A stretch of DNA of 64,000 nt, from the NCBI GenBank assembly GCA_963675665.1, contig OY776510.1:2976001-3040000 (forward strand), in the 5' to 3' direction. Source of the stretch: Spirochaetia bacterium (lineage in GTDB: Bacteria; Spirochaetota; Spirochaetia; UBA9216). Position numbers and translations under genes: made by a program. Positions 44,524-61,450 of this stretch are shown here, in pieces; the first letter of the stretch is position 1, and each line of letters opens with the position of its first letter. Below the pieces are notes generated by a model. That model was not told where the DNA came from and made no database searches. It saw only the letters and a list, made by a program, of their open reading frames with translations.

Positions 44524-47235
44524 ATGAATTTTAAAAATATTGTTACACTGATTATAATATCGCTTATACTCGCTTTAACCGGGTGTCCGAAGCCGCTTGA
44601 TCCGGTCATGCTCGAGCTTCTTAAGGATCTTGACGCCCCCGAAATTGTTATTATCTCGCCTGCTGATTACAGCGAATATTCTACCGTTCTGGAACTGAAA
44701 GGGACTATTAATGATCTGTCGCTGGAGAACGCTCCAGAAGGGACTTTGTTTCAGGTAGCATACCGGATTATCGGCACAACGATAAGCGGCACCATAGATG
44801 CCGATACGGCAGACGGTAGTTTTTCAACCTTGATTGACGTATCGGAACTGAACGGGGACCAGGTAATTGAAATATCGGCAGAGGACCTGAACGGGAATAC
44901 AGTTATTGTAAATGTAAATATCAGAAAACCCGCGGACGGGGGCGATATTTCAGGTTTCAGCGTGACTGCGGGAAACAAACAGGCGGTTATAAGCTGGGAC
45001 CCGGTGCCGGGGGCTGTCTCATATGATCTGAACGAGATGGCATACGGCAAGAGCACAGCGGGCGTTACAAGTCCATACATATGGAGTAATCTGGAAAACG
45101 GTGAAATATATACATTTGAATTAAAAGCAAATCTTCCTGAAGATAACGGAACCGATGCGTTCTCAAGCCAGGTATCAGTAATGCCGCTGAGCATCAGAAG
45201 TCTGTGCCCTGCGCTGTCGCCGGACGCCGACCGGAATACGATTAAACTTGAGTGGCCGAATATTCCGAATATTTCAACGTTCACAGTGGAAAGGCGCACG
45301 GCGCCGGACGGAACATGGGCGACCAGGAGGCTTTTGCCCAAAGACGCGTATGACGAAACCGGCGGGTTTATAGACGACGAAGTTGAATACGGAGAGTCTT
45401 ATTTTTACCGGGTAAAGCCCAGGGAATATCCCGACATTGTAAGCGAGGCGTGTTTCGCGGCTACCCAGAGATTCGGCGATTACAACGTTGAAGGTATGCT
45501 TGACTTCAACGATGCTGCCAATGATGTACTAATCTCAGGCGATTATGCCTATGTCGGCGTTAATAATGTGGGATTGGTTGTTATAAATATTTCCAGACCG
45601 GAAGCGCCCGAGATTGTAGGCGGCGTTGATGTATCAGGCCCTGTAATGGATTTGGCGATCATGGGAAACAACCTTTTTGCGGCCTGTTTTACAAGCGGTC
45701 TGGCCATTATCGATATTACCAGTCCCGAAGACCCGGGAGAACCGGTATATGTTGCAACGGAGGGCCTTGCAAGCGGGGTAGCAGCTTACAGCAACAGGGT
45801 ATACGTGGCCAACGGCAACAGCGGTCTTGCAGTAGTATATCTCAACAGTCTGCCGCCGCAGGGGGTTTTCCCATATCCAATCAATACCGGCGGATCTGCA
45901 GGGGGGGTAGCGATTAAGGACAGTTATGCTTATGTAGCGTGCGGCAGCGGAGGCCTTGCAGTAATCAATCTGAACACTAATTCCAAAATAACGGCGGCGA
46001 CAACTACCGACGACGCGCAGAATGTTTCGGTTTCGGGCAATTACGCCTATGTTGCATTGGGCGACAGCGGCGTTGATATTATTAATATTGAAACTCCGGC
46101 AAGCCCGGGCTCGGCCGTAAATGTAGTAACATCGGATTATGTTCCGGACGCTGCAGCCGACGGAAAATATCTTTATGCTGCTTCATATGAAAGCGGGCTG
46201 GCGGTAATTGACATATCTGATCCTGAAACGCCGGGGACCCCGGTTTATGTTGATACAATGGGGACCGCGAACGGAGTGGCTGTCGACGGCGGCTATGCAT
46301 ATGTAACCGACGGCTATGAAGGGTTCCGGATAATCGATGTTGCTTACCCCTTTGATACAGGCTCCAATGCTTCCGTAAGTACGGGCGGCGAAATAACTTA
46401 TGTTGAAATTGTTTCCGATGAATACCTTTATGCGGCGGATTACAATAACGGCCTGGCCATTATTGATATATCAGTTCCGCTGGAGCCTGATTTCGTAAAG
46501 TTTTTCGACATTTCCGCTACGCCGTTTTCAATCGCAGCTGCCGGAGAGCATGCGTATATTGCCCATGCCGACGGTATCGACATTCTTGATATAACGGAGC
46601 CTGCATCCCCGAACCTGGTGTCGACTGTCAGCGTCGGCGAAACAGTTTACGATACGGCCGTCTCCGGGTGTTATGCCTATGCCGCGGCAGGCTCCAAAGG
46701 ACTTGCCATTATCGATATTTCTAATCCTTCAGCTCCGGGAAGTCCTGAATATGTCGACACTGAATTTTTTGCAAACGGCGTATGCGTCTCGGACGGTTAC
46801 GCCTATGTATCGGACTGGACAAAAGGCCTGGCGGTCATAGATGTATCCGACCCGGAAAATCCGTGTAGTCCCGTATACGAATATACTACCCAATACGTCA
46901 ATGATGTAGAAATTTTGGATAACTGGGCCATTCTGTCATCGGAATACAAATATATTATATGTATTGATATATCCACCCCCGAGAATCCCGGAAGCGAAGC
47001 GCTATACCCTTTAAACGGTGAAGCGGAAAATATTTTTATTTCAGGTAATTATCATTATATAGCGGACGGAAACGCCGGGACAGCAATCATTAATACAAAG
47101 GACGCATCACCAATAGATAATGCGGTATATATTGCAACCCTGGATTATGTGCACTGTGTCAAGGTTTCAGGCCGGTACGCATATATTGCCGAAGGTTCTT
47201 CAGGACTTAAAGTTGTTGATCTGCTTGGGGAATAA
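44524..47235 (+). CDS. Lipoprotein with Ig/Fn3 domains and 14 LVIVD repeats
   Basis: LALTGC lipobox; Fn3-like SWDPV.GA.SY and EYGESYFYRV; repeats of G.YAYVA....GL.IIDIS.P..P. Confidence 0.85.
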   Translation: MNFKNIVTLIIISLILALTGCPKPLDPVMLELLKDLDAPEIVIISPADYSEYSTVLELKGTINDLSLENAPEGTLFQVAYRIIGTTISGTIDADTADGSFSTLIDVSELNGDQVIEISAEDLNGNTVIVNVNIRKPADGGDISGFSVTAGNKQAVISWDPVPGAVSYDLNEMAYGKSTAGVTSPYIWSNLENGEIYTFELKANLPEDNGTDAFSSQVSVMPLSIRSLCPALSPDADRNTIKLEWPNIPNISTFTVERRTAPDGTWATRRLLPKDAYDETGGFIDDEVEYGESYFYRVKPREYPDIVSEACFAATQRFGDYNVEGMLDFNDAANDVLISGDYAYVGVNNVGLVVINISRPEAPEIVGGVDVSGPVMDLAIMGNNLFAACFTSGLAIIDITSPEDPGEPVYVATEGLASGVAAYSNRVYVANGNSGLAVVYLNSLPPQGVFPYPINTGGSAGGVAIKDSYAYVACGSGGLAVINLNTNSKITAATTTDDAQNVSVSGNYAYVALGDSGVDIINIETPASPGSAVNVVTSDYVPDAAADGKYLYAASYESGLAVIDISDPETPGTPVYVDTMGTANGVAVDGGYAYVTDGYEGFRIIDVAYPFDTGSNASVSTGGEITYVEIVSDEYLYAADYNNGLAIIDISVPLEPDFVKFFDISATPFSIAAAGEHAYIAHADGIDILDITEPASPNLVSTVSVGETVYDTAVSGCYAYAAAGSKGLAIIDISNPSAPGSPEYVDTEFFANGVCVSDGYAYVSDWTKGLAVIDVSDPENPCSPVYEYTTQYVNDVEILDNWAILSSEYKYIICIDISTPENPGSEALYPLNGEAENIFISGNYHYIADGNAGTAIINTKDASPIDNAVYIATLDYVHCVKVSGRYAYIAEGSSGLKVVDLLGE

Positions 47236-47325: not shown

Positions 47326-47661
47326 ATGCCTACTTATGAATACGAATGCGTTGAATGCGGACACCGGTTTGAGGCCTTTCAGAGCATGTCAGACGATCCT
47401 TTAACCGAATGCGAACACTGCAAGGGCCCGGTTAAACGGCTGATTTTCGGCGGTACCGGGGTCATTTTCAAAGGCAGCGGCTTTTATGTAACCGACAGCA
47501 GCAAGGCAGGAAAGCAGAGCACCCAGGCATCAAAAGCCGATTCCGGAGACTCCGGGAAAGATTCGAAGCCGGAAAAGGCGTCAGCTGAATCTTCGACTTC
47601 GGAAAAATCAACGTCTGAAAAGAAAACGGACGCAAAAAAAGAACCGGCGGCAACAAAATAG
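47326..47661 (+). CDS. FmdB-family zinc-ribbon protein
   Basis: MPTYEYEC..CG..FE..QSM.D.PL..C..C, FKGSGFY.TD, low-complexity tail. Confidence 0.92.
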   Translation: MPTYEYECVECGHRFEAFQSMSDDPLTECEHCKGPVKRLIFGGTGVIFKGSGFYVTDSSKAGKQSTQASKADSGDSGKDSKPEKASAESSTSEKSTSEKKTDAKKEPAATK

Positions 47662-47683: not shown

Positions 47684-50587
47684 TCAGGAAAACCCCGTAT
47701 CTGAATAATAATGCTGTTTCAGTATTGTTTTCCGGGAAATAAATACGGGAAACAGAAAAATACTCACAAAAAAAGATGCCGAAAGTCCCGATATAAGAAT
47801 TATTGCCAGATTTCTGAAAAAGGGATCTGCGGTAAAAAGCATGGGCACAAGGCCCCCGATGCTTGTAATTGTCGTCAGAAAAAGGCCGTTAAAACGCTGT
47901 TTCACAGCCTGAAAACTGCCGTTCCCAAGATTGTCCATGATCAGGATGCCGTTATTGATCCCCATGCCGGAAACCAGAATAAGCCCCAGAATTGTCTCTG
48001 TTCCGAGTTCAAGGCCCGCCATCCTGATGATGACAAGCGGAATTGAAAGGATGAACGGAAGCTGAAGAAGTATCACCCCGGCCTGTTTAAGCGATTCGCG
48101 TTCTATGCTGAGCATAAAAAAGATAAGAATAATTGCCAGGATAAATCTCAGCCACATCCTTCGAAATAACTCCTGTCTTTCGATAAGTTTTGACGATGGA
48201 ATAAAACTGTAGCCGGAGGGAAGTTCAATCCTGTCAAGTTCTTCCCATATCATGGCGTTTAGTTTTACGGGATCCATTTTACGGCACGTCACAGTAAAAC
48301 TTTCAGAATGCTGACGGTTCAGCCTGTTGATACGGGAGGTGTCGGTTGTCTCTGTAAATGTACCCAGTTGATCAAGCCTTGAGAATGAGTCCGGATCTGC
48401 CCCGGATATCTTGAGTGAACCGAGCTGAGAGGCGGTCAGTTTTTCATAGTCGGCAGCCATCACTCTCAGGTCTCTTTCCTTCCCCGAAAAATACCATTTG
48501 TCCGCGACCGGGCCCTGAAGGTTCCACCGCAGAAAAGATGCCGCGGTTGAAGCGGATAATCCGGCTGCCGCAAGGGTTTCGCTGTTCGGGATGAAATGAA
48601 AGGCCGGGGGAGCATCCTTGAAATGAAGCACGCCTTCAAGGACCCAGTTGTTTGCGAGTAAACCCTTAAGCGCTTTCCGCGAGATCTCTTTCAGTTTGTC
48701 CGTCCCGGCCCCCGTTACCGATATCGTAAGTTTCAGCCTGTCGCTCCGATCGCCGTCAGGTATATAGATAAATCCGCCGGGGATGGTATTCCCGAGAGCT
48801 TTAAGACGGGTGAGCATTGCGTTTCTGTCCGTTTTTTTTTCATTGAAGCGGACCGTGAGGTTACCGCCGCCCCGGCGCGAGGTTGACTGGACCGATATAA
48901 CCGGCTCTTCCGACTCTATATCACCGCACAAACTTCTTATTTTTGAATCGGAAGATTGCATACTCTCTCCCTCTTCAAGCTCTACCCCGGCGAAGATAAC
49001 AGGCGAATCGGCGGGAGTGTCGAGCTGTATCGGAAGGGCTGCAAGACATATAATCCCTGCAAGCGGAAGGATTGTGGACGCAGAAATGAATATCCTGCGT
49101 TTATAAATGCTGCCGGATACGGAAGCAATTCGTTCGGAAAAAGAAAGAAGCCTGCGGCGGAGCTTCGCAAGAAAGAAAATAAAGCGTCCGGAAGGCCGGG
49201 CCGTCGTTATTCTGTAAAACGGGGGGATAAAGATAAGCGAAACAACAAGCGAAACGGAAAGCATTACAGCAAGGGCTGCAAGCAGCTGCCTGAGTCCGGG
49301 AATCTCGCTGGTAAGAGAAATGACCGGCAGCATGGCCGCAAGCGTACTCATAGTCGACGAAACAAGGGGTTTTATTATCTCCCTTATAGTTCCCTCTGTC
49401 CGCTCAAGGGCATCGGTTGTAAGCAAAGCTGAATCGAGAATCATCCCGATTCCTACCGTAAGCCCCGCAAGAAGCCAGCGATCGGGCGAGAGACCGGCAA
49501 CTGCGAGCAGTCCCAGCGAAAGAAGAAGTATAACCGGCTGGGTGAAAAACAGCGTTATTACCCTGTAGTTACGCACCCTGAACAACAGCAGCATTGCGCT
49601 TGAAACAAGCATGCCGATAGCCAGGGCCGCGGCAATTTTTTTAAAGGAGTTCTCAAGCTCGGCGCCCCTGTCGTATACTATTTTAGCTTCATATCCCCTA
49701 TTTTCCCATCCGGCAGTTTCGTTTCTGAGGTGTCTTGAAATGCTGATAAGGTTGTTTGACGAGCTTTTGATATGAAGACTTACCCGTTCCCTGCTGTTAA
49801 GTCTGCTGATGTTTTCGGGCTCGCGGAAAGAAAATCCGACTTTGGCGATATCGTTGAGTTTTACCGCCTGACCGACAGGCAGCGCGCGCAGTTCGTTAAG
49901 CGATTTAATCCTCGCTTCAACCGACAGGGGGAAACGGTTTTTGCCGTTATCTATTTCTCCGGCGGTGCGGTATATATTTGAATTGCGAACAAGCGAAGCA
50001 ATGGAATCCGGGCTGTACCCGAAAGCTGCAGCCCTGTCTGTGTCGACGTTAACGTGTATCTCCGGCAGGGCCCCTCCCGAGATTTCTATCTCTCCCAGGC
50101 CCTCAATTCTTGAATATGAGGGTTTGATTTCGTTTTCAACAAGGGGCCTCAGTTCCTCAGTACTCAGGCTGTTGGAAAATGCAACAATGAAGATTGCCTG
50201 CTGATCGCTGCCCGAGTTGAATACCTGGGGTTTCTGGACAGCCGGATTATGCTGCGATATCCAGGCATAGCTTCGATCTATTCTCTCACGGGCCTCGATT
50301 AGAAACTGATCAATATCGGTTGATGAAGCCAGACGCAGATCAAGCCTTGAAAGCGAGAACTCGCTGCCTGATTTTAATTCCTCAATGCCGGCAAGTCCGG
50401 ATACTGCTTCTTCCATGGGAATGGTGATGCTTTTTTCAATCTCCTCTGCAGTTACGCCGTAAAATCTGGTGATTATTGAAAGACGTGCTGAATCGATATT
50501 CATTCCGCCCGGATCGGTATCGGAGAGAAACCATGCGGCGGCAAGGAGCAGGGCCGCCAGCAGCATTGAAGCGGCGGTTTTTGTCAT
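47684..50587 (-). CDS. RND (AcrB-family) permease, divergent copy 2
   Basis: EEIEKSITIPMEEAV, GIGMILDSALL, GINNGILI; 12-TM RND layout. Confidence 0.85.
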   Translation of the reverse strand: MTKTAASMLLAALLLAAAWFLSDTDPGGMNIDSARLSIITRFYGVTAEEIEKSITIPMEEAVSGLAGIEELKSGSEFSLSRLDLRLASSTDIDQFLIEARERIDRSYAWISQHNPAVQKPQVFNSGSDQQAIFIVAFSNSLSTEELRPLVENEIKPSYSRIEGLGEIEISGGALPEIHVNVDTDRAAAFGYSPDSIASLVRNSNIYRTAGEIDNGKNRFPLSVEARIKSLNELRALPVGQAVKLNDIAKVGFSFREPENISRLNSRERVSLHIKSSSNNLISISRHLRNETAGWENRGYEAKIVYDRGAELENSFKKIAAALAIGMLVSSAMLLLFRVRNYRVITLFFTQPVILLLSLGLLAVAGLSPDRWLLAGLTVGIGMILDSALLTTDALERTEGTIREIIKPLVSSTMSTLAAMLPVISLTSEIPGLRQLLAALAVMLSVSLVVSLIFIPPFYRITTARPSGRFIFFLAKLRRRLLSFSERIASVSGSIYKRRIFISASTILPLAGIICLAALPIQLDTPADSPVIFAGVELEEGESMQSSDSKIRSLCGDIESEEPVISVQSTSRRGGGNLTVRFNEKKTDRNAMLTRLKALGNTIPGGFIYIPDGDRSDRLKLTISVTGAGTDKLKEISRKALKGLLANNWVLEGVLHFKDAPPAFHFIPNSETLAAAGLSASTAASFLRWNLQGPVADKWYFSGKERDLRVMAADYEKLTASQLGSLKISGADPDSFSRLDQLGTFTETTDTSRINRLNRQHSESFTVTCRKMDPVKLNAMIWEELDRIELPSGYSFIPSSKLIERQELFRRMWLRFILAIILIFFMLSIERESLKQAGVILLQLPFILSIPLVIIRMAGLELGTETILGLILVSGMGINNGILIMDNLGNGSFQAVKQRFNGLFLTTITSIGGLVPMLFTADPFFRNLAIILISGLSASFFVSIFLFPVFISRKTILKQHYYSDTGFS

Positions 50588-53500
50588 CCGGGACGGCCCT
50601 TAAGCCTTGTTTTTATTATATTTGGCAGAACAAGAAGAGACATCAGCGTTGATACAACGAGCCCGCCTATTATTGAGACCGCAAGAGAAGCCTGGCTTGA
50701 CGTTCCGAAAGGATCGATTGCCAAAGGGATCAGGGCCGTTATTGTGGTCAGGCTTGTCATCAGGATGGGCCTGAGCCGCGAGATTGTTCCGCGGTAGATG
50801 GCCCCGAGCGGCAGGGCCCCGCTTTGTTTCATCAAGCGGGATGCTTCCTCAAAAAGAAGAATCCCGTTGTTGACCGAAATGCCCATTACAACAAGGATTC
50901 CGAGGCTTGAATTGAGGTTGAGCGAATGTCCGGTCAGAAACAGTATTGCAATGATCCCTGAAGCGCCGGCCGGAATGCTGAGCATAAGAAGAAGCGGCAG
51001 GAAGAAAGATTCAAACTGGATTCCGAGACACAGGTAGAGCAGTATTACAGCCAGAATAAGCGTGCGGATTATCTGTGGAAGCTGGGACATCAAAACCGGG
51101 ACGTCCCGGGGTTCCGCTCCGCGGCTTTTAAGCAGACTGGTTATGTTCCTGCCTGTGTCGGAAGGGGTCCTTATTACAGCGAGATCCTTTCTCCCTTCCC
51201 GCAGCAGGTATGGAAGGGCCTGTTCATCCTGAATCCTGACAATCGAACTCAGGCGGACCGGAGCAGAACCCTGTCCGGGCATGTTCAACTGAAGAATGTC
51301 TCCGCGTTCGGAACGTTCGGATTCCATGATACGGAGTCGTACATCCGTCTCCTCTCCGTTTATCAGAATATTTGTCGGTATCTCTCCGTAGACGGCCTGC
51401 CCGATATGCTCGCTGAGATCGGAAAGACCTATGCCGTATGATGAAAGGGCCTTCCGGTCAGGGTAGACGAGTATCCGGGTCTTTCTATCCTCAGGCACCA
51501 GACGGACATCGGCAAGACCCCGGACTGCTTCCTCGGCGCTGCGCCTGACAATCCCGGGTTTGTCGCCGCTGATTACCCAGTCGGAATTCACGTTGATTCC
51601 TAAAAGATTTGCAAGGATATTTTCGGGGGGGCCTGTATTAAGAGTCCCGGTTTCCGGTGCTGTCAAGGAAGAAAGGCGCTTCTTTATAAAGGCTGTATCC
51701 GCATTTTTCCGGTGATTGATTTCAAGCTGGATTATCCCGGATGATTCATCGGTTGAGGCAAGATAGTATGGGTCGGAGCTTTCTCCTCCGGCCCAGGCAT
51801 TTACATGTTCTACTCCCGAAATTGTTGATATTTCGCCTGCAAGCTCTTCGGCAGTAAGCCTGACTGATTTAATGCTTGTTCCAGGCGGAAGCTTCAGACT
51901 GCCGCGGATTATCCCCTCGTTTATCGGGGTAATCACCTCGAGCGGAAGCTCCGGAAAGGGAATGACGGCCGCTGCACAGCAGAGCAGCGCAATAAGGCCG
52001 GCTATTGCCGGATGTTTCATCCCAGTTTTTACCAGCCTGATTATCGGTCTTGGGTTCCCCCGGTTTTTTATATCATTGATATCTTTGGGATTCAGGACAA
52101 GATAAAGAACGGGAATAAATGAAAGCGCCAGAAGAAGCGAGGATATCAGCGCGAAAATGACGCTCAGCCCCAGATCGGCGAATAACGAACCGGTTAATCC
52201 CCTGATAAACAAAAGGGGTAAAAACACTATAACGGTCGTAAGGGTAGAGCCTGCAAGCGAAGGGGCAAGTTCCCTCAGCGCCTGTGAAACAAGCGCTATC
52301 CGGGCTTCGGGCTCCTGAGAAGAAAGCCCGAGTCTGCTCATACGCTCGGTTACCACTATTGAATTGTCAACTACCATTCCGACTCCGAGGGCAAGACCTC
52401 CCAGACTCATCAGGTTAAGGCTTTTTCCGGTAAGAAAAAGCATGAGAACCGACAACAGCAGCGAGGAGGGCAGTGAAATCAGAAGAAGCAGGGCCCTCGG
52501 AAGATTGCGCATAAACAGCAGTATGATGACAAAGGCAAAGACTGCCCCCGATAACAGCGAAAAAGCGAGATCGTGCATTGACTGTTTAAGAGAAAGCGAA
52601 CGATCGGAGATAATATAAATATCAAGATCGCGTCCGAAGCTGCGGCTGATCTCCTCCAGTTCTCTGCGTATGTTTTCTGCCATTGCAGCGGGCGAGAATC
52701 CGGCAGTCCGTCTAATTTGCAGTCTCACGCCTTCTCTTATACCTGATCCGGAAGCCGAGAAAAAGACGGACGATTGTTCTTTTTGCCCCATTTCTATAGA
52801 CGCAACGTCTCTCAGCCGGATTGTCGCGGATGAAGAATCTCCATTCTGTTTCGGCAGAAAGATCCCGCCGAGTTCCATCAGACTTTGGGCCCTTGAACGG
52901 GTCTTGACCAGGTATTCGGTATTTCCTTCGGTTATTGTTCCGGCGGGATAGTCTATGTTTGCGCCTTCGAGTGCAGAGGCAAGCGCCGGAAGTGTATAGC
53001 CGAGGCCTGCAAGGCGCTTCGGATCAACCTCAACTTTAACCTCGTCTGTAAGGCCGCCGGAAAGCTGAATGGAACCGACCCCTTCAATCCTCTGAAGGCG
53101 CGAGCGAAGCTCCCGATCGGCAATTCTGCGGGCAAGCGAGAGCGAGCCGTTTTTCGGAAAGATTCCGAGGGTTATAATGGGCTGGTCTCCGGGATCAACA
53201 GCAAGGACGCGGGGCTTTGATGCGTCCGAGGGAAGATTGTGCCATGCCAGATCGATTACGCCCCGGGTTTCCAGCCCGGCTTCAGTACGATCGGTTCCCC
53301 ACGGAAATTCAAGTTCTATGAGCGATAGCCCGTCGCGCGAGATGCTTTTTATTCTTCTTAGTCCTCCGAGAGAGGACAGGGAATCTTCAAGAGGAATCGT
53401 AATAAGCCTGCGAATTTCATCGGCAGGAAGCCCCTGATAAGTTGAGATGACCGTCAGCCTGGGGACGGAAAAGTCCGGAAGAAAATCGGTGCGTATATTG

Positions 53501-53589
53501 AATAATGTCCAGATGCCTCCTGTGATTAAACCCGTCCAGAGCATGATTGTGCCGACGGGGCGTCTTAAAAAGAGCTCAGGAATCTTCAT
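50584..53589 (-). CDS. RND (AcrB-family) permease, copy 1
   Basis: LRRPV, ITIPLED, LNLMSLGGLALGVGMVVDNSIVV, QFESF..PL, RLRPILMT. Confidence 0.92.
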   Translation of the reverse strand: MKIPELFLRRPVGTIMLWTGLITGGIWTLFNIRTDFLPDFSVPRLTVISTYQGLPADEIRRLITIPLEDSLSSLGGLRRIKSISRDGLSLIELEFPWGTDRTEAGLETRGVIDLAWHNLPSDASKPRVLAVDPGDQPIITLGIFPKNGSLSLARRIADRELRSRLQRIEGVGSIQLSGGLTDEVKVEVDPKRLAGLGYTLPALASALEGANIDYPAGTITEGNTEYLVKTRSRAQSLMELGGIFLPKQNGDSSSATIRLRDVASIEMGQKEQSSVFFSASGSGIREGVRLQIRRTAGFSPAAMAENIRRELEEISRSFGRDLDIYIISDRSLSLKQSMHDLAFSLLSGAVFAFVIILLFMRNLPRALLLLISLPSSLLLSVLMLFLTGKSLNLMSLGGLALGVGMVVDNSIVVTERMSRLGLSSQEPEARIALVSQALRELAPSLAGSTLTTVIVFLPLLFIRGLTGSLFADLGLSVIFALISSLLLALSFIPVLYLVLNPKDINDIKNRGNPRPIIRLVKTGMKHPAIAGLIALLCCAAAVIPFPELPLEVITPINEGIIRGSLKLPPGTSIKSVRLTAEELAGEISTISGVEHVNAWAGGESSDPYYLASTDESSGIIQLEINHRKNADTAFIKKRLSSLTAPETGTLNTGPPENILANLLGINVNSDWVISGDKPGIVRRSAEEAVRGLADVRLVPEDRKTRILVYPDRKALSSYGIGLSDLSEHIGQAVYGEIPTNILINGEETDVRLRIMESERSERGDILQLNMPGQGSAPVRLSSIVRIQDEQALPYLLREGRKDLAVIRTPSDTGRNITSLLKSRGAEPRDVPVLMSQLPQIIRTLILAVILLYLCLGIQFESFFLPLLLMLSIPAGASGIIAILFLTGHSLNLNSSLGILVVMGISVNNGILLFEEASRLMKQSGALPLGAIYRGTISRLRPILMTSLTTITALIPLAIDPFGTSSQASLAVSIIGGLVVSTLMSLLVLPNIIKTRLKGRPG

Positions 53590-55132
53590 CAAAAAGCTCC
53601 GCTGTCCAGTCTTTCGTCATCGAGTTTCCAAGACTGTCGGTAAGATCCGAATAAACCTGAAACAGGATAAGCCCGCTCTGCTCGGCATCATCGGTAAGCG
53701 ACGAGATCAGTCGAACTAAACCTTGATCAGCTTCGGGCGTCGGAACCGGGGACGAAGCTGCTGCAAGCGAATCGCCGGGATTGAATATTTGAAAATCAAG
53801 ATAACCGACTGATATGCAGGAATCGGCGGGGCTTATCAGAAAGTTTTCAACAAGGCTGAAGAAGGGAAGTTCCGCCCCGTCCGCAAGGCCGAAATAGTAA
53901 TCGATGTAGTAGGGATATTCGGTTGCGTCGCCGCCTGATGTATCGAGAATTTCATGACTTGATACAGCCGCTGAGGGAGTTTCAGCATCGTATATGCAGA
54001 ATCCTGTTCCGCCGTCGGGGGCCATGTTTACGCGCTCAAGCAGGGGGGGCGAAGATCCCCGACCGTCCACAAAAATGTAGTATATGTATTCTTCCTCTAT
54101 ACAGTTGTCCTGAAGATCGCTTAAGCCGGTTGATACGGCTATCCGGTATAGTTCATGCCAGAGAAGAGCGTCGTCAAAACTGATTATCATCTCTGCGGGG
54201 CTCGCTCCGTCATCGAAGCTGATATCAAAGTCAATGTCCGGTTCGACTGTAATTGCCGCCTCTGCGCTATCCCGGTTAACCTCTTCGGAAAAACCGAGTC
54301 GTATATCCCAGTCTTTCTCCCACCCGGTATTCACATTGATTTCCTGACCGTCCGGGGCCGAGGCAATAAGGTTCAGAGACCCTTCATCAGATGCCGCCGA
54401 AGTTATAAAAGGAGGCTCTTCGTCGCTGCCGACTCTGAAACTTGAGCTGTACTCTTCTGATAGAGCATAACCGTTTGTGCTTTTCAGATCGGTTGAGATA
54501 ACTATCGTGTATTCCTGTTGCCATTCAAGTTTTTCGGCAGGAGTAAATGTAAATATCGTCAGGTTTGCATCGAGCTTCGAGACGCCGGTAACGGACGGGC
54601 TTATTGAAAAAGCTGAGAGGACCGAATCAGGAGAAACCGGCGTGTTGAAGACAACAGCAACAGTTTTTTGCTGATCATCTACAGTTTCATCATCTGCGGG
54701 CGACACGGAAACGATAAGGGGCCTTTGCCCTCGCGCACCGATTCTGAACCTTGCCTGGAAGTCCTCGAACAGCGAGTTTCCTTGTGAATCTTCGGCGGAA
54801 GTAGTAAGTTTTATCTCGTAATCAGTATTGTCTTCCATCCGGGAATAGGGAACAAAGGTAAGTGCTGTTCCTTCGATTGATACCCTTCCGGGCACTTCCG
54901 TGCCCTCTGTGGTTATGCTGAAAGCGCCCTCCGTGCAGACCGGCTCGGGCTCCCTGTTGAATATCAGTTTCACATCCGAAATCTCCGATGGAGAACCCAA
55001 ATCTCCGCCGGGACTCCACGATACTATTTCGAGCGGCGAGCTGAGCATAGCGCTGCATGAAAAAAGAAGCGGAAAGACAACGAAGGTTGACAGAAATGTT
55101 TTTTGAAGGCTAAAAAAAGTTTTCATAATCAT
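53576..55132 (-). CDS. Lipoprotein with tandem Big_5-like Ig domains (B)
   Basis: LLFSC lipobox; three P.I.S..P...V...F..... / L....Y.I.I...L.D..GN repeats plus a C-terminal domain. Confidence 0.8.
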   Translation of the reverse strand: MIMKTFFSLQKTFLSTFVVFPLLFSCSAMLSSPLEIVSWSPGGDLGSPSEISDVKLIFNREPEPVCTEGAFSITTEGTEVPGRVSIEGTALTFVPYSRMEDNTDYEIKLTTSAEDSQGNSLFEDFQARFRIGARGQRPLIVSVSPADDETVDDQQKTVAVVFNTPVSPDSVLSAFSISPSVTGVSKLDANLTIFTFTPAEKLEWQQEYTIVISTDLKSTNGYALSEEYSSSFRVGSDEEPPFITSAASDEGSLNLIASAPDGQEINVNTGWEKDWDIRLGFSEEVNRDSAEAAITVEPDIDFDISFDDGASPAEMIISFDDALLWHELYRIAVSTGLSDLQDNCIEEEYIYYIFVDGRGSSPPLLERVNMAPDGGTGFCIYDAETPSAAVSSHEILDTSGGDATEYPYYIDYYFGLADGAELPFFSLVENFLISPADSCISVGYLDFQIFNPGDSLAAASSPVPTPEADQGLVRLISSLTDDAEQSGLILFQVYSDLTDSLGNSMTKDWTAELFDEDS

Positions 55133-56598
55133 TCTTCCTCCGCAAGGAATATGAATGATATTGCGTCAAGAAGGTACGAACCGCCGGGGGGTGCCGAATC
55201 GGATGAGCCGGCAGTAATTCTGAAGCGGTAGTAAACCGGCTCTCCCACAGAACAGCTTGCGAGATCTTCGTAAATTAATCGTATCCGTGTTTCACTTTCC
55301 CAGGCGGACGAATAGAGAGACGGGGCTGCAGTTCCGGGAGGGAAGACCGGAGACAGGCTTATGCACGAAACGAATTCCCGGCGTTCGTTTATTGATTCGG
55401 AGGGGAAGCCTTCGGCAAGGTTGACATAGAAATAAAGGGTGTCCGTGCCGTAGTAATCAAGATTCGGAATCGTAATATAACCGTCGTTGTTGAAGTCTCC
55501 TGCATACAGGACCATATTGGGCGGGATATTGTCTTCGATTTCCACACTCACTATTTCCTGGGCCGGTATTGACGGTGTGAAATACAGGCTCCAGTTGCTG
55601 GTAGTGGAATTCCCCCTTGTGTCCATCAATCCTTCTTCAATAATCAGTTCATATTCCTGATCAGGAGGAAGTTCTTCGTCGATGTAATACAATGCTGTCT
55701 GGGGATCTATGGCCACGATATATCCGTCTATAGAGGGGGTGAGCGACAGCTGACGTCTCAGGCTTGAGAAATCAATGCTTTCCGAAAAGGTTAGCGCAAG
55801 ATGCTGCCCGAGCAGCAGATCATCAGCGGAAAGGGCTGTCAATACCGAATAACTGCCGTCGGCGTTGTCGCCGGCAGGATAGATCCCGGTCACCGATGGA
55901 GCATCGGTATCTGCCTGGACAAGAAAGCTTCCGCTGCTTTTCCGGGGAAGGGGGATTCCCGCCTCGTCCGTTACCTCCGGAGATATACTCCAGTTGTAGC
56001 AGCACAGATTAATCCAGGCGTTGTCGGGAGTGATTGTTACAACAGTAGAATTTTCGTTCCAGCTGCAGTCGAATTCTGCAGACGGCCTGAGGGTGAACCC
56101 GTCGTCAAACGAATTCCTGTCTATCGGTTTGCTGAATGAGAACACAATGGTGTTGTCGACATCGACAATCGCCGTATTATCCGGAACTGTCGAAACGAGA
56201 ACCGGCGGAAGCTCGTCGGTTTGATAGTAAAATGGAATATCTATATATTTGGTAAAGCTTCTGCCGTCTGCTGTTTTCAAATCGCCGAAGATCTGCATCC
56301 GATACCTGTGCCCCGGCTGCATCTCTTTATGCGGAGCAAATACAACCGAATCGGTTTCCCAAAGAAAGTCTCCGTCCGCATCGCCGTCCGGGCCTGCAAG
56401 ACTGAATATCGATTCAAACGAGAAGCGGTCAGGCTCTTCGGAGAACCGGACAGTTATATATTCCTCCGGGCCGAAAATTTGTTCGGGTTCCGACGGATCC
56501 GGTTCAAGCTCCAGATCCCCGAGCCATATAAGTGCGCAGGAAAAAAACAGCAAAGGCAGGGCGCTGATGAATAGAACCGAAAGGGATTTATTGTACAT
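55129..56598 (-). CDS. Lipoprotein with tandem Big_5-like Ig domains (A)
   Basis: LFFSC lipobox; FSEEPD, FSKPID, FSESID repeats; D..G closing strands. Confidence 0.8.
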   Translation of the reverse strand: MYNKSLSVLFISALPLLFFSCALIWLGDLELEPDPSEPEQIFGPEEYITVRFSEEPDRFSFESIFSLAGPDGDADGDFLWETDSVVFAPHKEMQPGHRYRMQIFGDLKTADGRSFTKYIDIPFYYQTDELPPVLVSTVPDNTAIVDVDNTIVFSFSKPIDRNSFDDGFTLRPSAEFDCSWNENSTVVTITPDNAWINLCCYNWSISPEVTDEAGIPLPRKSSGSFLVQADTDAPSVTGIYPAGDNADGSYSVLTALSADDLLLGQHLALTFSESIDFSSLRRQLSLTPSIDGYIVAIDPQTALYYIDEELPPDQEYELIIEEGLMDTRGNSTTSNWSLYFTPSIPAQEIVSVEIEDNIPPNMVLYAGDFNNDGYITIPNLDYYGTDTLYFYVNLAEGFPSESINERREFVSCISLSPVFPPGTAAPSLYSSAWESETRIRLIYEDLASCSVGEPVYYRFRITAGSSDSAPPGGSYLLDAISFIFLAEEE

Positions 56599-57955
56599 CT
56601 ACCGGGTCTCCTTCTTTAAGAAGGGGCGACGGATCTATGACTATAACATCGCCTTCTTCAAGCCCCTCGATAAGTTCATGCATTCCTCCCGATTCAGCCT
56701 CGACAACCACGCTCCTGGGATAAACCCTTCCGCCCTGTACAAGAAGCACCAGCCCGCGGCTGCCGTCGAGCCGGACGAACGAATTCGCCGGCAGCCGGAC
56801 AAGCTGCCGCGGGGGTCCGTATGTCAGCGAGAACCTGGAAAACATTCCGGGACGAAAGAGTCCTTCATTATTATCCAGTCCGGCTTTGATTGTAATATTA
56901 CCGCTGCCTGTATCTATGGTGGGGCTTATCCGGCGGATTGTCGCAGAAAATACCCGGTCTTTTACCGCGTCGAGACTCAACTCTACGGGCTGTCCGGGAG
57001 TCAGAAGGACGCCGATTTCTTCAGGCACTCCGAAAACGAGGTCCACCTCGGAAGAATCAAAGATGGTGAAAAGCTTGTCGTCCGCCTGAATTCTCTCTCC
57101 GGTTTCCATATATCTTGCCCCGATTATTCCGTCCATAGGCGAGAAGAGTTTTGTTTCCTCAATCAGGGCTTCAGCTGACTGCAGTTCCGTTTCGGCGGAT
57201 TTTACCTTCGCTTCAGCCGCTTTCAGCTCGGATTTCAACGTAAGCGAATTAAGGTTAAGAAGCAGTTTAAGTTTCCCGGCTTCATCGGAAGGAATATCGT
57301 AACCGTATTCGATAATATCCTTGTCCCTGAATCCGATTTTTTTAATCATTATGTCCTTTTCAAGGATCTTTATTTCCGTTTCAAGAGCTGAAAAAGAGAG
57401 TTCCATTGACGACAGATCTTCTTCGGCGGCTCCGCCTATGCTGAACAATTCCCTCTCGTTTTCGAGAAGCCCACGCTGATGTTCCAGTTCCAGAAGTTTC
57501 TGCTTCAGATTGAGTTCGGACTTCTCGATAGAAATCAGGTTGCCTTCTATTCGGAGTCTGCCCTCCCTGTATTGCGTTTCGGACAGTTCGTATGCAGCTT
57601 CAGCCGAGAAGAGAGAAGCCCGGGCCTGCTCCCTGCGTATCTCAAGCTGGATGTTGTAAAGGATTGCAACAGGCTGCCCGTTCCTTGCCTTGTCGCCTTC
57701 TTCAACCAGGAGATCCCTTATAGTTCCGTCGACCGCCGAGGTAATATCGGCCTTGCTGCGAAACGAAAGGTTTCCAAAACCGTCTATAACCTGCCTGATC
57801 TCTTCCCGTTTCAGGCGGCACACGCTTACACTGCGGGCTTCTCCGGCATCGGATATGTCACGGATCTCTTTCTTGCCGGTGCAGCAGGAAAAAAGCTGTA
57901 AAATTGTAAGCGTTATAATTACTGTTATGATCGTTCCGGTTTTTAATCGCATCAT
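56588..57955 (-). CDS. RND periplasmic adaptor (MFP) with long helical hairpin
   Basis: ITSAVDGTI..LLVEEGD, SPMDGII, GERI, ISPTID..SG, FRPGMF, GLEEGD; ATG at 57955 via TAATG overlap. Confidence 0.92.
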   Translation of the reverse strand: MMRLKTGTIITVIITLTILQLFSCCTGKKEIRDISDAGEARSVSVCRLKREEIRQVIDGFGNLSFRSKADITSAVDGTIRDLLVEEGDKARNGQPVAILYNIQLEIRREQARASLFSAEAAYELSETQYREGRLRIEGNLISIEKSELNLKQKLLELEHQRGLLENERELFSIGGAAEEDLSSMELSFSALETEIKILEKDIMIKKIGFRDKDIIEYGYDIPSDEAGKLKLLLNLNSLTLKSELKAAEAKVKSAETELQSAEALIEETKLFSPMDGIIGARYMETGERIQADDKLFTIFDSSEVDLVFGVPEEIGVLLTPGQPVELSLDAVKDRVFSATIRRISPTIDTGSGNITIKAGLDNNEGLFRPGMFSRFSLTYGPPRQLVRLPANSFVRLDGSRGLVLLVQGGRVYPRSVVVEAESGGMHELIEGLEEGDVIVIDPSPLLKEGDPVDVQ

Positions 57956-59379
57956 TATTCGCAGTCCTTTATCAGGGAATTTGCTCCGTAATGGATGCTT
58001 GAACACAGGTGTTCAAGCTTGCCGAAGCCGGTCCCCGTAAGCTTTTCAAAAGCCCTTTCGGTTTGCATCAGTTCCATTACCTCTTCAAGAATGCCTATTT
58101 CTCCGCTGTAGAATTCGATTCTCGCTTCAAGCAGATCGGCTTCGGTGACCTCTCCCATTGTATTTCTTGTTTCAAGAATCTTCAGACGTTTATTCTGAAG
58201 CTCCTGGGTGCTGCGCCTTACCGTCAGTCTCAGTCTCATGTGTTCAAGTTCTTTCAGGGCGGTACGGACTGAGCGGTTGAGGGAGGTGACGGCGCTTTCA
58301 AGTTCTTCGGCCGCCTGCCGGAGTTGAAGCTTTGCTGATTTGCCGTCTGCAATAAAACCCGGGTCCGGCAATAACGAGACGTCGGCGCTGCCGGAACGTG
58401 AAATCTGATCATTGCCCTGGAATCCGCCGCCCATGCCGATTTCGGAGGGAGCCGGACTAAACGGAAATCCGAAGTTGAGACTCACGGAGCCTCCGGGCTG
58501 TTGAAGCGGAAAATCCGTTCCGCTTATAACCAGATTCACTTCAAGCGATATTGACGGAATATACGCCCTTTTTGAGAGTTCGTATTCCGTTCTTATCTGT
58601 TCTAGTTCGATGCGCTTTCCCCTGAGTTTCAGATTCGCCGTAGCTGCAGTCTGTAACCAGATACTGTGGTCATTTTCCCAAAGCTGAAGGCCCTGATATT
58701 CACGATCAAGAGAGCCTTTGAGTTCAAGAGGATTTTTTTCGAAAAAGAGGTGATCGAATCCGAGTAATACGGCGAAGTCCTGCATCAGTCCTTCGGTTTC
58801 GGTTTCGGTGTCCATAATGTCGAGTTCCATTTCCCTTACTTCAATAGCCGCTTCAAGGTAATCAAGCTCGGTCAGAGTTCCCATTTCGTATTTTTTGGCT
58901 GTAACCGAAAGCTGCTTGACCGAAATATCAAGCAATTCCTTCTGAAGATCCATTTTCTGTTCATTTAAAAGCAGGCCGTAGAAAAAACCCCACACGCTGT
59001 CGCGCAGTTCTTCCATACTGTTTTCAAGCGACGCGGCCTGCATTCGTAACCGGACATCTGCAAGCCTGAGGCCCTCAAGGCCCCGGCCTCCGTTGAAAAG
59101 CGGCTGTGTAATACTGAGTCCGAGTTGGATCGACTCTGAATCGCCTGAATGAAGGTTTGCCTGCCGGCCTGAACTATAGCTAAGATCAAAGCTGGGCAGG
59201 AAACTTCGAATATCAAGTTTGTTCTGAAGCGCTGCAAGTTCAATCTGTTCCCTTGCGTGGATAAGCTCTTTTGAGGATTCAAGAGCAAGCCTTTCAGCTG
59301 TATCAAGATCTATTCCCGTCGAATAAACAGCGACAGCTGATGTGAAAAAAAGGATTACAAACAGCCTATTTTTCATCAT
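57955..59379 (-). CDS. TolC-family outer membrane channel
   Basis: LPSFDLS, ITQPLFNGG, YEMGTLTELDYLEA, MGEVTEADLLEA duplicated halves. Confidence 0.88.
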   Translation of the reverse strand: MMKNRLFVILFFTSAVAVYSTGIDLDTAERLALESSKELIHAREQIELAALQNKLDIRSFLPSFDLSYSSGRQANLHSGDSESIQLGLSITQPLFNGGRGLEGLRLADVRLRMQAASLENSMEELRDSVWGFFYGLLLNEQKMDLQKELLDISVKQLSVTAKKYEMGTLTELDYLEAAIEVREMELDIMDTETETEGLMQDFAVLLGFDHLFFEKNPLELKGSLDREYQGLQLWENDHSIWLQTAATANLKLRGKRIELEQIRTEYELSKRAYIPSISLEVNLVISGTDFPLQQPGGSVSLNFGFPFSPAPSEIGMGGGFQGNDQISRSGSADVSLLPDPGFIADGKSAKLQLRQAAEELESAVTSLNRSVRTALKELEHMRLRLTVRRSTQELQNKRLKILETRNTMGEVTEADLLEARIEFYSGEIGILEEVMELMQTERAFEKLTGTGFGKLEHLCSSIHYGANSLIKDCE

Positions 59380-59833
59380 AAATTGCCGAAGCAAGTTCAG
59401 CGATATTACTGTCGATCAGTTCAAAAGTCCACGAAAAGGAATCAATGCTTTTTTCGGTATCTTCGGTATAGAGCCTGTATGCCGCCGCTTCACCGTTCAG
59501 GGAAAGCTCGAGTCTCAGTGTCACTGATTCGCGGCTGCTGTAATCATACTGCCATTTTTTCATATGGAGAAAGATCTCCAGCTCGTAGATATCCTCGTCA
59601 GATTGTTCAAAGACTGTAAAGCCTGCGCCGGCAAGACAGCTTTTTACAAGGTCGGGCAACTCTTCCGAGATACCGTCAAGAATATAAGAAGGTTTGAGAG
59701 TGATTTTATTCAGATGGACCCCGGCAGATACAGGTATCTCCGTATATATTCTGGTTGAGCTGCTTCCGGGCAGAGTTGAGCAGGAACACAGAAAAACTGT
59801 GATTATAATGCCAGCGGCAATGATTTTTTTCAT
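59366..59833 (-). CDS. Lipoprotein, unknown function
   Basis: FLCSC lipobox; ATGA overlap with the TPR gene. Confidence 0.75.
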   Translation of the reverse strand: MKKIIAAGIIITVFLCSCSTLPGSSSTRIYTEIPVSAGVHLNKITLKPSYILDGISEELPDLVKSCLAGAGFTVFEQSDEDIYELEIFLHMKKWQYDYSSRESVTLRLELSLNGEAAAYRLYTEDTEKSIDSFSWTFELIDSNIAELASAIYDEK

Positions 59834-60495
59834 TTATATTTCTCCGTTTTTTCAAGTAGATCCGTTACGGCCTGTCTTAACGGACTTTCGGAAGAAAGAA
59901 GTTCAAGTGCCCTTTCAAGCTGTTGCGAGGCGATCTGCGGATTCAAAAGCCCGCTGTAAATTTTCGCAAGCTCAATTCTGTTCAGCGCAAGTTCTTCCTC
60001 GAACAGGATTGAACGGCTTCGGTATTCTATTGCTTTCTGGTAATCATTTTTAACCGCGGCAATTGACGCAAGTATTCCGAGAACGCGGGGGTCTTCGGGC
60101 GCACGCGACAGGATATCCTCGCCCAGAGCGGCTGCCGCGTCTATATTATCAAGTTGAACAAGACAGCGAAGAAGCCAAATCTCCGCTTCATAGTAGTTTT
60201 CTGTTCTTTTAAGAAGCTTTTTCAGGGTATTTTCGGCCTCTTCATACCGCTCTGAAAAGAATTCCGCCTTGCCCTTCAATAGCCCGGCCTGATGAAAAGA
60301 ACTGTTTCCTTTTACAAGCGCGCTTGTCAATTTAAGGCAAAGCCCGAAGTCGGCGCGTTCATAGGCGTTTACAGCCCGGAAGTATAGATCAAGTTCCGTA
60401 CGGTCCGGCTCTGCCGGGCGGTTCAGAAAGAAGAATATTGTGACCGATAAGGCTGATGCGGCCAGAAATATAAGAAATGTTTTCTTAACTGTCAT
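59830..60495 (-). CDS. Membrane-anchored TPR protein
   Basis: N-terminal TM helix; repeated TPR-like helices (G.A.F....YEEA...L, YQKAIEY). Confidence 0.8.
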   Translation of the reverse strand: MTVKKTFLIFLAASALSVTIFFFLNRPAEPDRTELDLYFRAVNAYERADFGLCLKLTSALVKGNSSFHQAGLLKGKAEFFSERYEEAENTLKKLLKRTENYYEAEIWLLRCLVQLDNIDAAAALGEDILSRAPEDPRVLGILASIAAVKNDYQKAIEYRSRSILFEEELALNRIELAKIYSGLLNPQIASQQLERALELLSSESPLRQAVTDLLEKTEKYK

Positions 60496-60744
60496 TCACT
60501 GATGTATAATCGCTTTTTTATCTGCTGCTTCTGAAAATAAAACAATGATTGTAAAAAAATCAGATTTCAGATTACAATTGGGAAATACGGCTGATATTTT
60601 TATATATCCTTTACAAGGAATACAAAAGAAATGAACTATAATGAATTCAACGGTTTTTCCGGGTCTCAAATCGAGACGCAAAATGAATATGCGGGTGCGG
60701 AGAATACGTGTTTCCGGATCGTGATTACGGTTGTTTGCTACCTG

Positions 60745-60799
60745 TTGACAATAATAGCGAGGAAGTGTATAAAAATAATACATACCGGTAAGTCGGTAT
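60745..60799 (+). promoter_or_regulatory. tetR promoter with downstream palindromic operator
   Basis: TTGACA-N17-TATAAA followed by ATACCG-N6-CGGTAT at 60782-60799. Confidence 0.7.
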
Positions 60800-60835
60800 T
60801 TAGAATGAATGCCTTGTAATCGGAGAGGGTCGGAT

Positions 60836-61450
60836 TTGGCTGAAAACAAACCAAAAGACATCAGAAAACAGGAGATTCTGGACGCCGCTGAGAAATGTTT
60901 CGCGGAAAAGGGATTACAGGATACCAGGATTGATGATATCGCCCTGAAGGCCGGTTTGACAAAAGGCGGTATCTATTGGCATTTCAGGGACAAACGGGAA
61001 ATATATCTGGCCATGATTGACCGGCACCTGACTGCTGATCTGGAATTCTGGGAGAAGATTGTCAGTGTTGAACCTGTAACCCTGAAGTCTCTTGAAGCCG
61101 CCGGAATTCTGTATATCAGATATGCCGCGGAGAGCAGCAGTCATTTTTATCTTCATACGGAAATGCTCGCCCAGTCATTCCGGGATAATATCGTGAAAAA
61201 CAAACTGGAAAAGCTGCATTCGGACTGGAAAGTGAAAATCCGTGATTTTATTGTTTCTGTCCATGGGAGTCAGAATCGGGATCCCAAAGATTTTAATGCG
61301 GAAGGGACGGCATGTCTGCTCCTTTCCTGTCTGGAGGGATTCATTCATCAATTTTGGCTGGACCAGGCGGAGAAGAGCCTCGGTCGATATGAAAAATCAT
61401 GGATATATCTTGTCCGGAGTTTGCTTGGAGATCGGAGAAAAGAGAGATAA
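60836..61450 (+). CDS. TetR/AcrR-family regulator
   Basis: ILDAAEKCFAEKG...T.IDDIA..AGLTKGGIYWHF..K; TTG at 60836 after GGAGAGG (track start 60809). Confidence 0.92.
   Translation: MAENKPKDIRKQEILDAAEKCFAEKGLQDTRIDDIALKAGLTKGGIYWHFRDKREIYLAMIDRHLTADLEFWEKIVSVEPVTLKSLEAAGILYIRYAAESSSHFYLHTEMLAQSFRDNIVKNKLEKLHSDWKVKIRDFIVSVHGSQNRDPKDFNAEGTACLLLSCLEGFIHQFWLDQAEKSLGRYEKSWIYLVRSLLGDRRKER

Follow-up and report, generated by a model that had tools for sequence, protein, structure and literature searches.

An eight-gene operon of Spirochaetales predicted to encode a tripartite RND exporter with four accessory envelope proteins

Tripartite exporters built around a permease of the resistance-nodulation-division (RND) superfamily are usually seen as three-part machines. 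They can have accessory partners such as CusF, AcrZ, and MexG. CusF is a small soluble metal chaperone; it hands its substrate over to CusCBA, as the lipoprotein LprG does to the pump P55. PelC, LptE, PqiC, and TraT are lipoproteins of the outer membrane that assemble as rings or plugs on conduits of the envelope, PelB carries tetratricopeptide repeats (TPR), and ybjP lies outside any tolC operon. The permeases MdtB and MdtC are described as having arisen by gene duplication (PMC7015380), and the PelBC export complex as containing a periplasmic ring of twelve PelC lipoproteins (PMC12141448). YbjP, which showed that parts of such machines had been overlooked, is reported to bind the periplasmic face of Escherichia coli TolC and to supply it with a lipid anchor in the outer membrane (PMC13082787; PMC13095208). 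Here we describe a locus of eight genes in a stretch of 64,000 nucleotides (nt) from a Spirochaetia bacterium (assembly GCA_963675665.1, contig OY776510.1, positions 2,976,001 to 3,040,000), which we call the window and from which all coordinates are taken. We consider it moderately probable that this locus encodes a tripartite RND exporter with an MdtBC-like permease pair and four dedicated accessory envelope proteins. The original prediction for this DNA had started from the statement that ordinary loci encode only channel, adaptor, and permease(s); this has to be softened, as accessory partners do exist, for example YbjP on TolC as described in PMC13082787.

The list of open reading frames (ORFs) and profile searches revealed eight consecutive ORFs on the minus strand, running from position 60495 down to 47684. 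The first gene of the unit (59830-60495) encodes a TPR protein of 221 amino acids (aa; TPR_19, E 3.1e-10; TPR_16, E 3.3e-10). It is followed by the gene for a small lipoprotein of 155 aa (59366-59833), which has a lipobox and belongs to no Pfam or NCBIfam family, and by the gene for a channel of the outer membrane efflux protein (OEP)/TolC family (57955-59379; about 474 aa from the ATG at 59379; PF02321 in two repeats, E 2.6e-37). The adaptor, a lipoprotein of the membrane fusion protein (MFP) type (56588-57955; 455 aa from the ATG at 57955), matched TIGR01730 (RND_mfp) with 187.2 bits. Two lipoproteins with immunoglobulin (Ig)-like domains are encoded next, IgA (55129-56598; 489 aa; Big_5, E 5e-21; lipobox FFSC) and IgB (53576-55132; 516-518 aa; Big_5 in three stretches, E 1.4e-31). 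The last two genes encode the permeases RND1 (50584-53589; 1001 aa from the ATG at 53589; ACR_tran, 554 bits, E 7.7e-166) and RND2 (47684-50587; 967 aa; ACR_tran, 316.6 bits, E 3.9e-94). Six of the eight proteins were thus clearly named by profile searches, and a lipobox with its cysteine is present in the adaptor, IgA, IgB, and the small lipoprotein. The starts of the longest ORFs of OEP (TTG), MFP (GTG), and RND1 (TTG) are probably not genuine, and the nearby inner ATG codons are likelier. The gene order of the original prediction (TPR, lipoprotein, TolC, MFP, IgA, IgB, RND1, RND2) was borne out by the ORFs and their family matches, with corrections concerning the strand, which is the minus strand, and the starts of OEP, MFP, and RND1.

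The junctions between the genes were taken directly from the nucleotide sequence. As had been claimed, the genes overlap at every junction, by 1 to 14 nt. The TPR and small lipoprotein genes share an ATGA (4 nt), the small lipoprotein and OEP genes overlap by 11 or 14 nt depending on the choice of ATG, and the OEP and MFP genes share 1 nt within a TAATG, where use of a second ATG would give a 2-nt gap instead. The overlap is 11 nt between MFP and IgA, an ATGA between IgA and IgB, 14 nt between IgB and RND1, and again an ATGA between RND1 and RND2. When the window was compared with three related loci (L002, L003, and L004; see below), the 4-nt TPR/lipoprotein overlap, the 11-nt MFP/IgA overlap, the 4-nt IgA/IgB overlap, and the 14-nt IgB/RND1 overlap were each found in four of four loci. 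In L003, the 4-nt IgA/IgB overlap requires a GTG start; with the ATG, 1 nt is shared. The overlap sizes were unchanged in the three related loci although the proteins are only 39-56% identical. Since the same order and the same overlap sizes recur in independent genomes, the arrangement is not one of chance, and the eight genes are best read as a single, presumably co-translated operon.

The junction between IgB and RND1 has a further property. The conserved C-terminus of IgB, FDED(N/S), is encoded by codons that fall within the 14 nt shared with the start of RND1 (53576-53592), in the window as well as in L002, L003, and L004, so that the end of IgB and the start of RND1 (M-K-I/T...) are two reading frames constraining each other. 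Part of the conservation of FDED(N/S) may therefore stem from RND1. Distant IgB-like proteins lack this ending.

The related loci were obtained by scanning 185,579 species-representative genomes with two peptide patterns taken from a ten-sequence IgB alignment, one of them being the FDED tail; being tied to these two patterns, the scan reached close relatives of IgB and not the more distant IgB-like genes. Eighty-three stretches matched a pattern and four were confirmed as relatives (L001-L004), all of them from metagenome-assembled genomes of Spirochaetales, one being Candidatus Thalassospirochaeta sargassi. The loci were compared by tblastn with the window proteins, using a 60-bit display filter, and by ORF lists. 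The eight genes were complete and in the same order in two of the four loci (L003 and L004). L002 contains the first seven genes, with the contig ending inside RND1, and L001, a contig of 3.7 kb, contains IgB followed by RND1. None of the four loci contradicted the order. Identity to the window proteins was 39-67%, except for the small lipoprotein with 28-43%; in L002 the latter was seen only in the alignment, at 27% identity and with a conserved lipobox. TPR orthologues with 47-55% identity occupy the same position in L002, L003, and L004. The genes flanking the operon differ among the loci. Constant presence of the eight genes with changing flanks indicates that the conserved unit consists of exactly these eight. 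A conserved neighbourhood among spirochaetes, which the original prediction had proposed to look for, was thus found in three Spirochaetales loci and partly in a fourth (L001). Its range is narrow and comprises few free-living Spirochaetales, mostly known from metagenomes.

Three of the proteins were searched for in a collection of 5.8 billion clusters, by a word-based matching that limits the reach of the search. IgB gave 20 matches at E ≤ 1e-3, of which 11, its own protein included, had at least 45% identity. For IgA, 12 matches were found; nine of these (its own protein and eight orthologues) had at least 49% identity, and the next had 24%. RND2 gave 279 matches, only seven of which reached at least 46% identity, after which the values fell to 22-26%. 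Six of the eight non-self IgA orthologues are encoded on contigs of the same size as the contig of an IgB match, and the same holds true for two RND2 matches. One relative is 90% identical and lies on a contig of 5.38 Mb. Judging by these matches, IgA, IgB, and RND2 each form a rare family with sharp bounds, and the three occur on the same contigs. In an exhaustive HMMER search over 1.84 billion representatives with the last 161 residues of IgB, 24 proteins were found at E ≤ 1e-3, eight of them at 1e-10 or better. Most of the 24 are 470-540 aa long and match at their C-terminus, which is the architecture of IgB, and all proteins found in this way scored better against IgB than against IgA in BLASTP. 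The claim that the four extra proteins are dedicated to the RND locus is supported by this rarity and the shared contigs and by the order and overlaps kept at 39-67% identity.

By profile scores, and at the level of genes, the operon contains all three components of a tripartite exporter: an ACR_tran permease, an RND_mfp adaptor, and an OEP channel. Both permeases belong to the ACR_tran superfamily (cut-off 28 bits), with matches covering nearly the full profile. They are 25% identical to each other over their full length. The closest solved relative of RND1 in the Protein Data Bank (PDB) is MdtB (9lyq_B, E 5.5e-81); RND2 is far from solved structures, its best PDB match having an E value of 4e-23, and is a divergent paralogue specific to this clade. 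Neither permease passed any of the NCBIfam subfamily cut-offs (HAE1, RND_permease_1/_2, CusA/CzcA, MdtB, MdtC). Against the HAE1 cut-offs of TIGR00915, NF000282, and NF033617 (940, 1250, and 1250 bits), RND1 scored 268.5, 328.5, and 439.6 bits and RND2 122.6, 157.6, and 226.7 bits. For CusA/CzcA (TIGR00914, cut-off 701.45) the values were 313.3 for RND1 and 97.6 for RND2. With 274.4 versus 1584 bits for MdtB (NF007798) and 254.7 versus 1774 bits for MdtC (NF007905), RND1 also did not qualify as an orthologue of either protein. As all subfamily cut-offs were missed, the label "ordinary HAE1" is not established.

The two permeases also differ from typical ones at positions in transmembrane helices (TM) 4, 10, and 11 whose roles are known from AcrB, the Asp pair of TM4 and the Lys of TM10 belonging to the proton relay. 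In TM4, the typical pair is D-D, whereas RND1 has V-D-N and RND2 L-D-S (L-D-C in L003 and L-D-A in the RND2 sequence P0025). In TM10, the typical K is replaced, with V-N-N in RND1 and I-N-N in RND2. The first Arg of the TM11 motif is kept typically and in both permeases; the second is kept in RND1 (P in L003) and is mostly N in RND2 (Q in L004, K in P0026). The HAE1-type Asp-Asp pair of TM4 and the Lys of TM10 are thus absent from both RND1 and RND2, and these patterns are conserved across the orthologues covering the sites. A motif scan of 25 sequences showed that in distant RND permeases (P0028-P0045) D-N pairs in TM4 occur together with N-N in TM10, and D-D together with K-N, as if these positions co-varied in an alternative charge network. 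Because the D-N/N-N combination recurs in many distant RND proteins, it would be a working variant rather than a sign of decay. The two tandem paralogous permease genes behind a single adaptor gene are conserved in L003 and L004. By analogy to MdtB and MdtC, RND1 and RND2 probably form a mixed trimer.

With its 187.2 bits, the adaptor exceeded the TIGR01730 cut-off of 94.9 bits, and it additionally matched HlyD_D23 (E 1.3e-23). Its lipobox is LFSCC. In a profile search against the PDB, position 240 of the adaptor aligned to AcrA position 147, and residues 71-345 aligned as a single stretch to residues 24-298 of EmrA. EmrA has a very long hairpin. The two alignments imply that the helical region between the lipoyl half-domains of the adaptor exceeds that of AcrA by about 100 residues and equals that of EmrA in length. 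An ORF of 309 aa on the plus strand (56249-57178), antisense to the adaptor and IgA genes, is unsupported and probably no gene. The channel protein scored 128.9 bits for PF02321 (cut-off 22) over its two repeats and stayed below the narrower TIGR01844 (74.5 versus 225 bits) and TIGR01845 cut-offs. It has a signal peptide with no clear lipobox; three of the four orthologues have no cysteine at the N-terminus, and in L004 a cysteine within the hydrophobic core is ambiguous.

The small lipoprotein had no Pfam or NCBIfam match even at E ≤ 10, and a profile search against the PDB gave nothing better than E 0.3. Its lipobox cysteine is invariant in four of four orthologues. An AlphaFold2 (AF2) model computed from four sequences had a predicted local distance difference test score (pLDDT) of 86 and a predicted template modelling score of 0.78. 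When this model was compared with the PDB by Foldseek, PelC dodecamers were the top matches (E 2.6e-7, TM-score 0.52-0.60), followed by LptE, PqiC, and TraT with E values of 1e-4 to 1e-5. Based on the model, the small lipoprotein is confidently predicted to have a PelC/LptE/PqiC-like alpha/beta fold. Leads from Atlas features for this protein (Lipoprotein_16, DUF4410, MapA, DUF4823) were weak (0.91) and were discarded. A hydrophobic segment at the N-terminus of the TPR protein may be a signal anchor or a signal peptide, and in all four orthologues this segment is followed by a conserved N-x-P-x-E-P motif. Because of the parallels to PelC-PelB and TolC-YbjP, we infer that the small lipoprotein is a partner of the channel.

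IgA and IgB scored 75.8 and 109.7 bits, respectively, for Big_5 (PF13205; cut-off 23.6). IgA consists of tandem Big_5 Ig-like domains and a conserved C-terminal region. With 23% identity (E 1e-13) the two proteins are paralogues, and both are strongly acidic, with an isoelectric point of 4.05 each. Directly after the lipidated cysteine of IgA (residues 21-30, window positions about 56509-56538), the motif C-x-L/I-I-x-L-G-D-L is kept in the orthologues; such a hydrophobic motif is unusual for a lipoprotein tether. The AF2 model of IgB, based on a 10-sequence alignment, had a mean pLDDT of 68. Residues 30-355 form three confident Ig-like beta-sandwiches in blocks mostly at pLDDT 85-95, and residues 356-516 stayed below 50. 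The structural neighbours of the model are generic tandem-Ig proteins (the LdtMt2 stalk, the S-layer protein SbsC, cadherins, titin), and the structure search of IgB yielded no functional lead. The family-specific C-terminal domain (about 160 aa) is better conserved than all other parts of IgB: of its 161 columns, 47 are invariant, versus 17-20 of about 100-120 for each Ig domain. It had no Pfam match at E ≤ 10. Atlas features gave a weak pointer (0.90) to Big_5 clusters, and hhalign of the domain against the Ig domains of IgB itself gave 12% probability over a piece of 28 columns. As a guess, it might be a degenerate fourth Ig domain. A complex prediction for the adaptor (residues 26-455) and IgA (residues 22-489) yielded no answer (scores 0.00/0.00); run without controls, it weighs neither way.

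The proposed mechanism combines these elements. The core would consist of the TolC-family channel, the long-coiled-coil lipoprotein adaptor, and the two paralogous permeases, and by analogy to known pumps would perform proton-driven export. The PelC-fold lipoprotein would most likely be held by its lipid on the periplasmic side of the outer membrane, where it would be a partner of the channel with a function comparable to that of YbjP, and the TPR protein would most likely serve as a scaffold that resides with it at the channel/outer-membrane end. IgA and IgB would be stalks of about three Ig-like domains with a conserved C-terminal domain, located alongside the adaptor and the permeases. Most likely, they would be accessory subunits in the periplasm whose role is to brace the unusually long assembly of adaptor and permeases or to hold it in position. 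With respect to the substrate, the neighbouring TetR gene of the window is a hint of small hydrophobic compounds.

Several points weigh against this proposal. The mixed trimer, the placement of the accessory proteins, their bracing role, and every contact between them and the pump are inferred by us, and separate homotrimers of RND1 and of RND2 are just as conceivable. The three extra lipoproteins could reside in the inner membrane, in the outer membrane, or on the surface, and the C-terminal domains of IgA and IgB come with neither a confident model nor a demonstrable family. The likeness of the small lipoprotein to PelC and LptE is one of fold, at TM-scores of 0.5-0.6, with no sequence relation. 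The genomic comparison is built on four related loci and on coincidences of equal-sized contigs; the gene neighbourhoods of the distant IgB-like proteins (P0146-P0162) lie outside it. Finally, the regulator is not conserved together with the unit.

The conservation of IgA and IgB and their translational coupling to the permeases, including the 14-nt IgB/RND1 overlap in four of four loci, would also suit a function in substrate capture. IgA and IgB would then not be structural parts, but would take hold of a substrate that is bulky or hardly soluble (such as a lipid, a glycolipid, a metal, or part of a polymer) and pass it to the permeases. A conserved C-terminal head on an Ig stalk fits such a role, and with two Ig paralogues beside two permease paralogues there could be one partner for each. 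IgB also matches a CopC domain weakly, at E 5e-4 and below the cut-off. This match covers about 30 residues and is to be expected among related Ig-like folds. IgA and IgB revealed neither a binding pocket nor a metal-ligand motif nor membership in a ligand-binding family, they contain few His and Met residues (two and seven, respectively, in IgB), and the head domain has no model. We therefore regard a capture function as possible but unlikely.

A bolder version of the proposed exporter is an eight-protein, envelope-spanning RND machine in which a PelC-fold ring and a TPR scaffold cap a TolC-type duct, an extra-long adaptor sheath joins this duct to a mixed RND trimer, and two four-domain Ig-lipoproteins act as struts for the sheath. 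Such a machine would be fitted to the wide, flagellum-containing periplasm of spirochaetes and may move a bulky glycolipid, lipid, or polymer instead of drugs. We offer this picture as speculation, with a rather low probability.

The OEP-MFP-RND core is complete without the extra proteins, a TetR-family regulator adjoins it in the window, and Big_5 lipoproteins are common in many envelope contexts. The locus might thus be an ordinary TetR-controlled multidrug pump, and the TPR protein and the three lipoproteins might only share its transcript while having envelope functions unrelated to it. This is difficult to reconcile with gene order and exact overlap sizes that are kept at 39-56% identity while the flanks change, with the position of the Ig genes between adaptor and permeases rather than at the operon end, and with the co-occurrence of the rare families IgA, IgB, and RND2, and we consider mere co-transcription improbable. 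A pump for drugs is a separate matter. The view that the locus serves something "rather than a drug pump" found no support, given the divergent TetR neighbour and the normal OEP-MFP-RND core. That the Ig-lipoproteins are themselves the cargo, extracted by the pump from the inner membrane and exported to the outer membrane or displayed on the surface, was likewise unsupported and is very improbable: the embedding of lipoprotein genes in a transporter operon is circumstantial and, even though lipoprotein transport to the spirochaete surface is not fully understood, we know of no RND system that moves folded proteins, RND/TolC systems are unlikely to accept a lipoprotein of 50 kDa in its folded state, the models predict stable, folded beta-sandwiches for the Ig domains, and the sequences contain nothing resembling an export signal, the FDED(N/S) end being possibly constrained by the RND1 overlap.

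The regulator just mentioned is encoded divergently from the operon on the plus strand (60809-61450; TetR_N, E 1.7e-16) and has a weak likeness to MtrR/AcrR. In L002 and L003 no TetR gene is located beside the operon. In L004, a gene of the TetR family lies at a distance of 1.2 kb upstream and gave no tblastn match above the 60-bit filter; the flank there comprises RadC, DUF1801, and this gene. The TetR gene was rejected as a member of the unit, since its place beside the operon is not conserved. Weak consensus matches mark a candidate promoter/operator region upstream of the TPR gene (60505-60577, minus strand). It comprises a sigma-70-like match (TTGTAA-18-TACAAT, 60577-60548, 9 of 12 positions) and, between this match and the TPR start, an imperfect 17-nt inverted repeat (60505-60521/60537-60553, 76% complementary). 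The repeat (60505-60553) could be a putative TetR operator. A 121-aa ORF upstream of the TPR gene (60496-60861, minus strand), which reaches into the start of the TetR gene, is unsupported and probably no gene. At the place of the TetR gene, L003 (1-4358, minus strand) and L002 (1-3752, minus strand) have a divergent ORF of more than 1250 aa that runs off the locus. Downstream of the TetR gene in the window, a protein of 378 aa with an ATC_hydrolase domain (E 1.7e-15) and a transglutaminase-like core (E 3.8e-6) is encoded on the plus strand (61546-62682). At the other end of the operon, the gene for an FmdB-family zinc-ribbon protein of 111 aa (47326-47661, plus strand; TIGR02605, E 2.5e-19) is convergent with the end of RND2 at a gap of 22 nt. 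It is preceded by a gene for a protein of 903 aa with 12 LVIVD repeats of beta-propeller type (44524-47235, plus strand; E 1.7e-78), which is absent from the related loci.

The superfamilies and folds of all parts and the core mechanism are already known. What is new is that the eight genes form a fixed set, that two of the lipoproteins represent rare families, that the second permease is divergent, and that a PelC-fold lipoprotein occurs in a TolC setting. Our literature searches brought up, among the titles listed, no description of an RND operon with Ig-like/Big_5 lipoproteins or accessory lipoproteins of this kind. Known from the genes alone in a few free-living Spirochaetales genomes, the locus, whose four accessory genes overlap the pump genes and are conserved with them as a unit down to about 40% identity, offers a natural system for the roles of accessory lipoproteins in channel anchoring, assembly length, and substrate delivery.

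Among the known systems, CusCFBA resembles the locus in that an extra periplasmic protein is encoded within an OEP-MFP-RND operon. It differs in the nature of this protein, as IgA and IgB are multi-Ig lipoproteins of about 500 aa with no metal-site motif, and RND1 is below the CusA/CzcA cut-off. The likeness to PelB-PelC lies in the top structural matches of the small lipoprotein, which are PelC, and in the TPR gene located directly upstream with an ATGA overlap. This likeness is at the level of fold only; a TolC-type channel takes the place of the PelB porin as the conduit, the TPR protein, at 221 aa, stands on its own, and no polysaccharide synthase genes were found near the operon among the window ORFs by profile searches. 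As in the case of TolC and YbjP, a small lipoprotein can be associated with a TolC-family channel, here by a gene that overlaps the channel gene, whose product has no clear lipobox. The small lipoprotein has no family match at all and hence none to the family of YbjP, and the listed structural matches do not include YbjP. These negatives lower the probability that the protein is a YbjP, not the probability that it works like YbjP. In comparison to MdtABC-TolC, the operon also includes the channel gene and, in addition, four extra genes, two of which separate the adaptor gene from the permease genes, and RND1 and RND2 are only 25% identical and far off the MdtB and MdtC equivalog cut-offs, with D-N/N-N and D-S/N-N in TM4/TM10 versus D-D/K. 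What the locus shares with MdtABC-TolC is the succession of a single adaptor gene and two adjacent RND genes, and MdtB is the closest solved relative of RND1.

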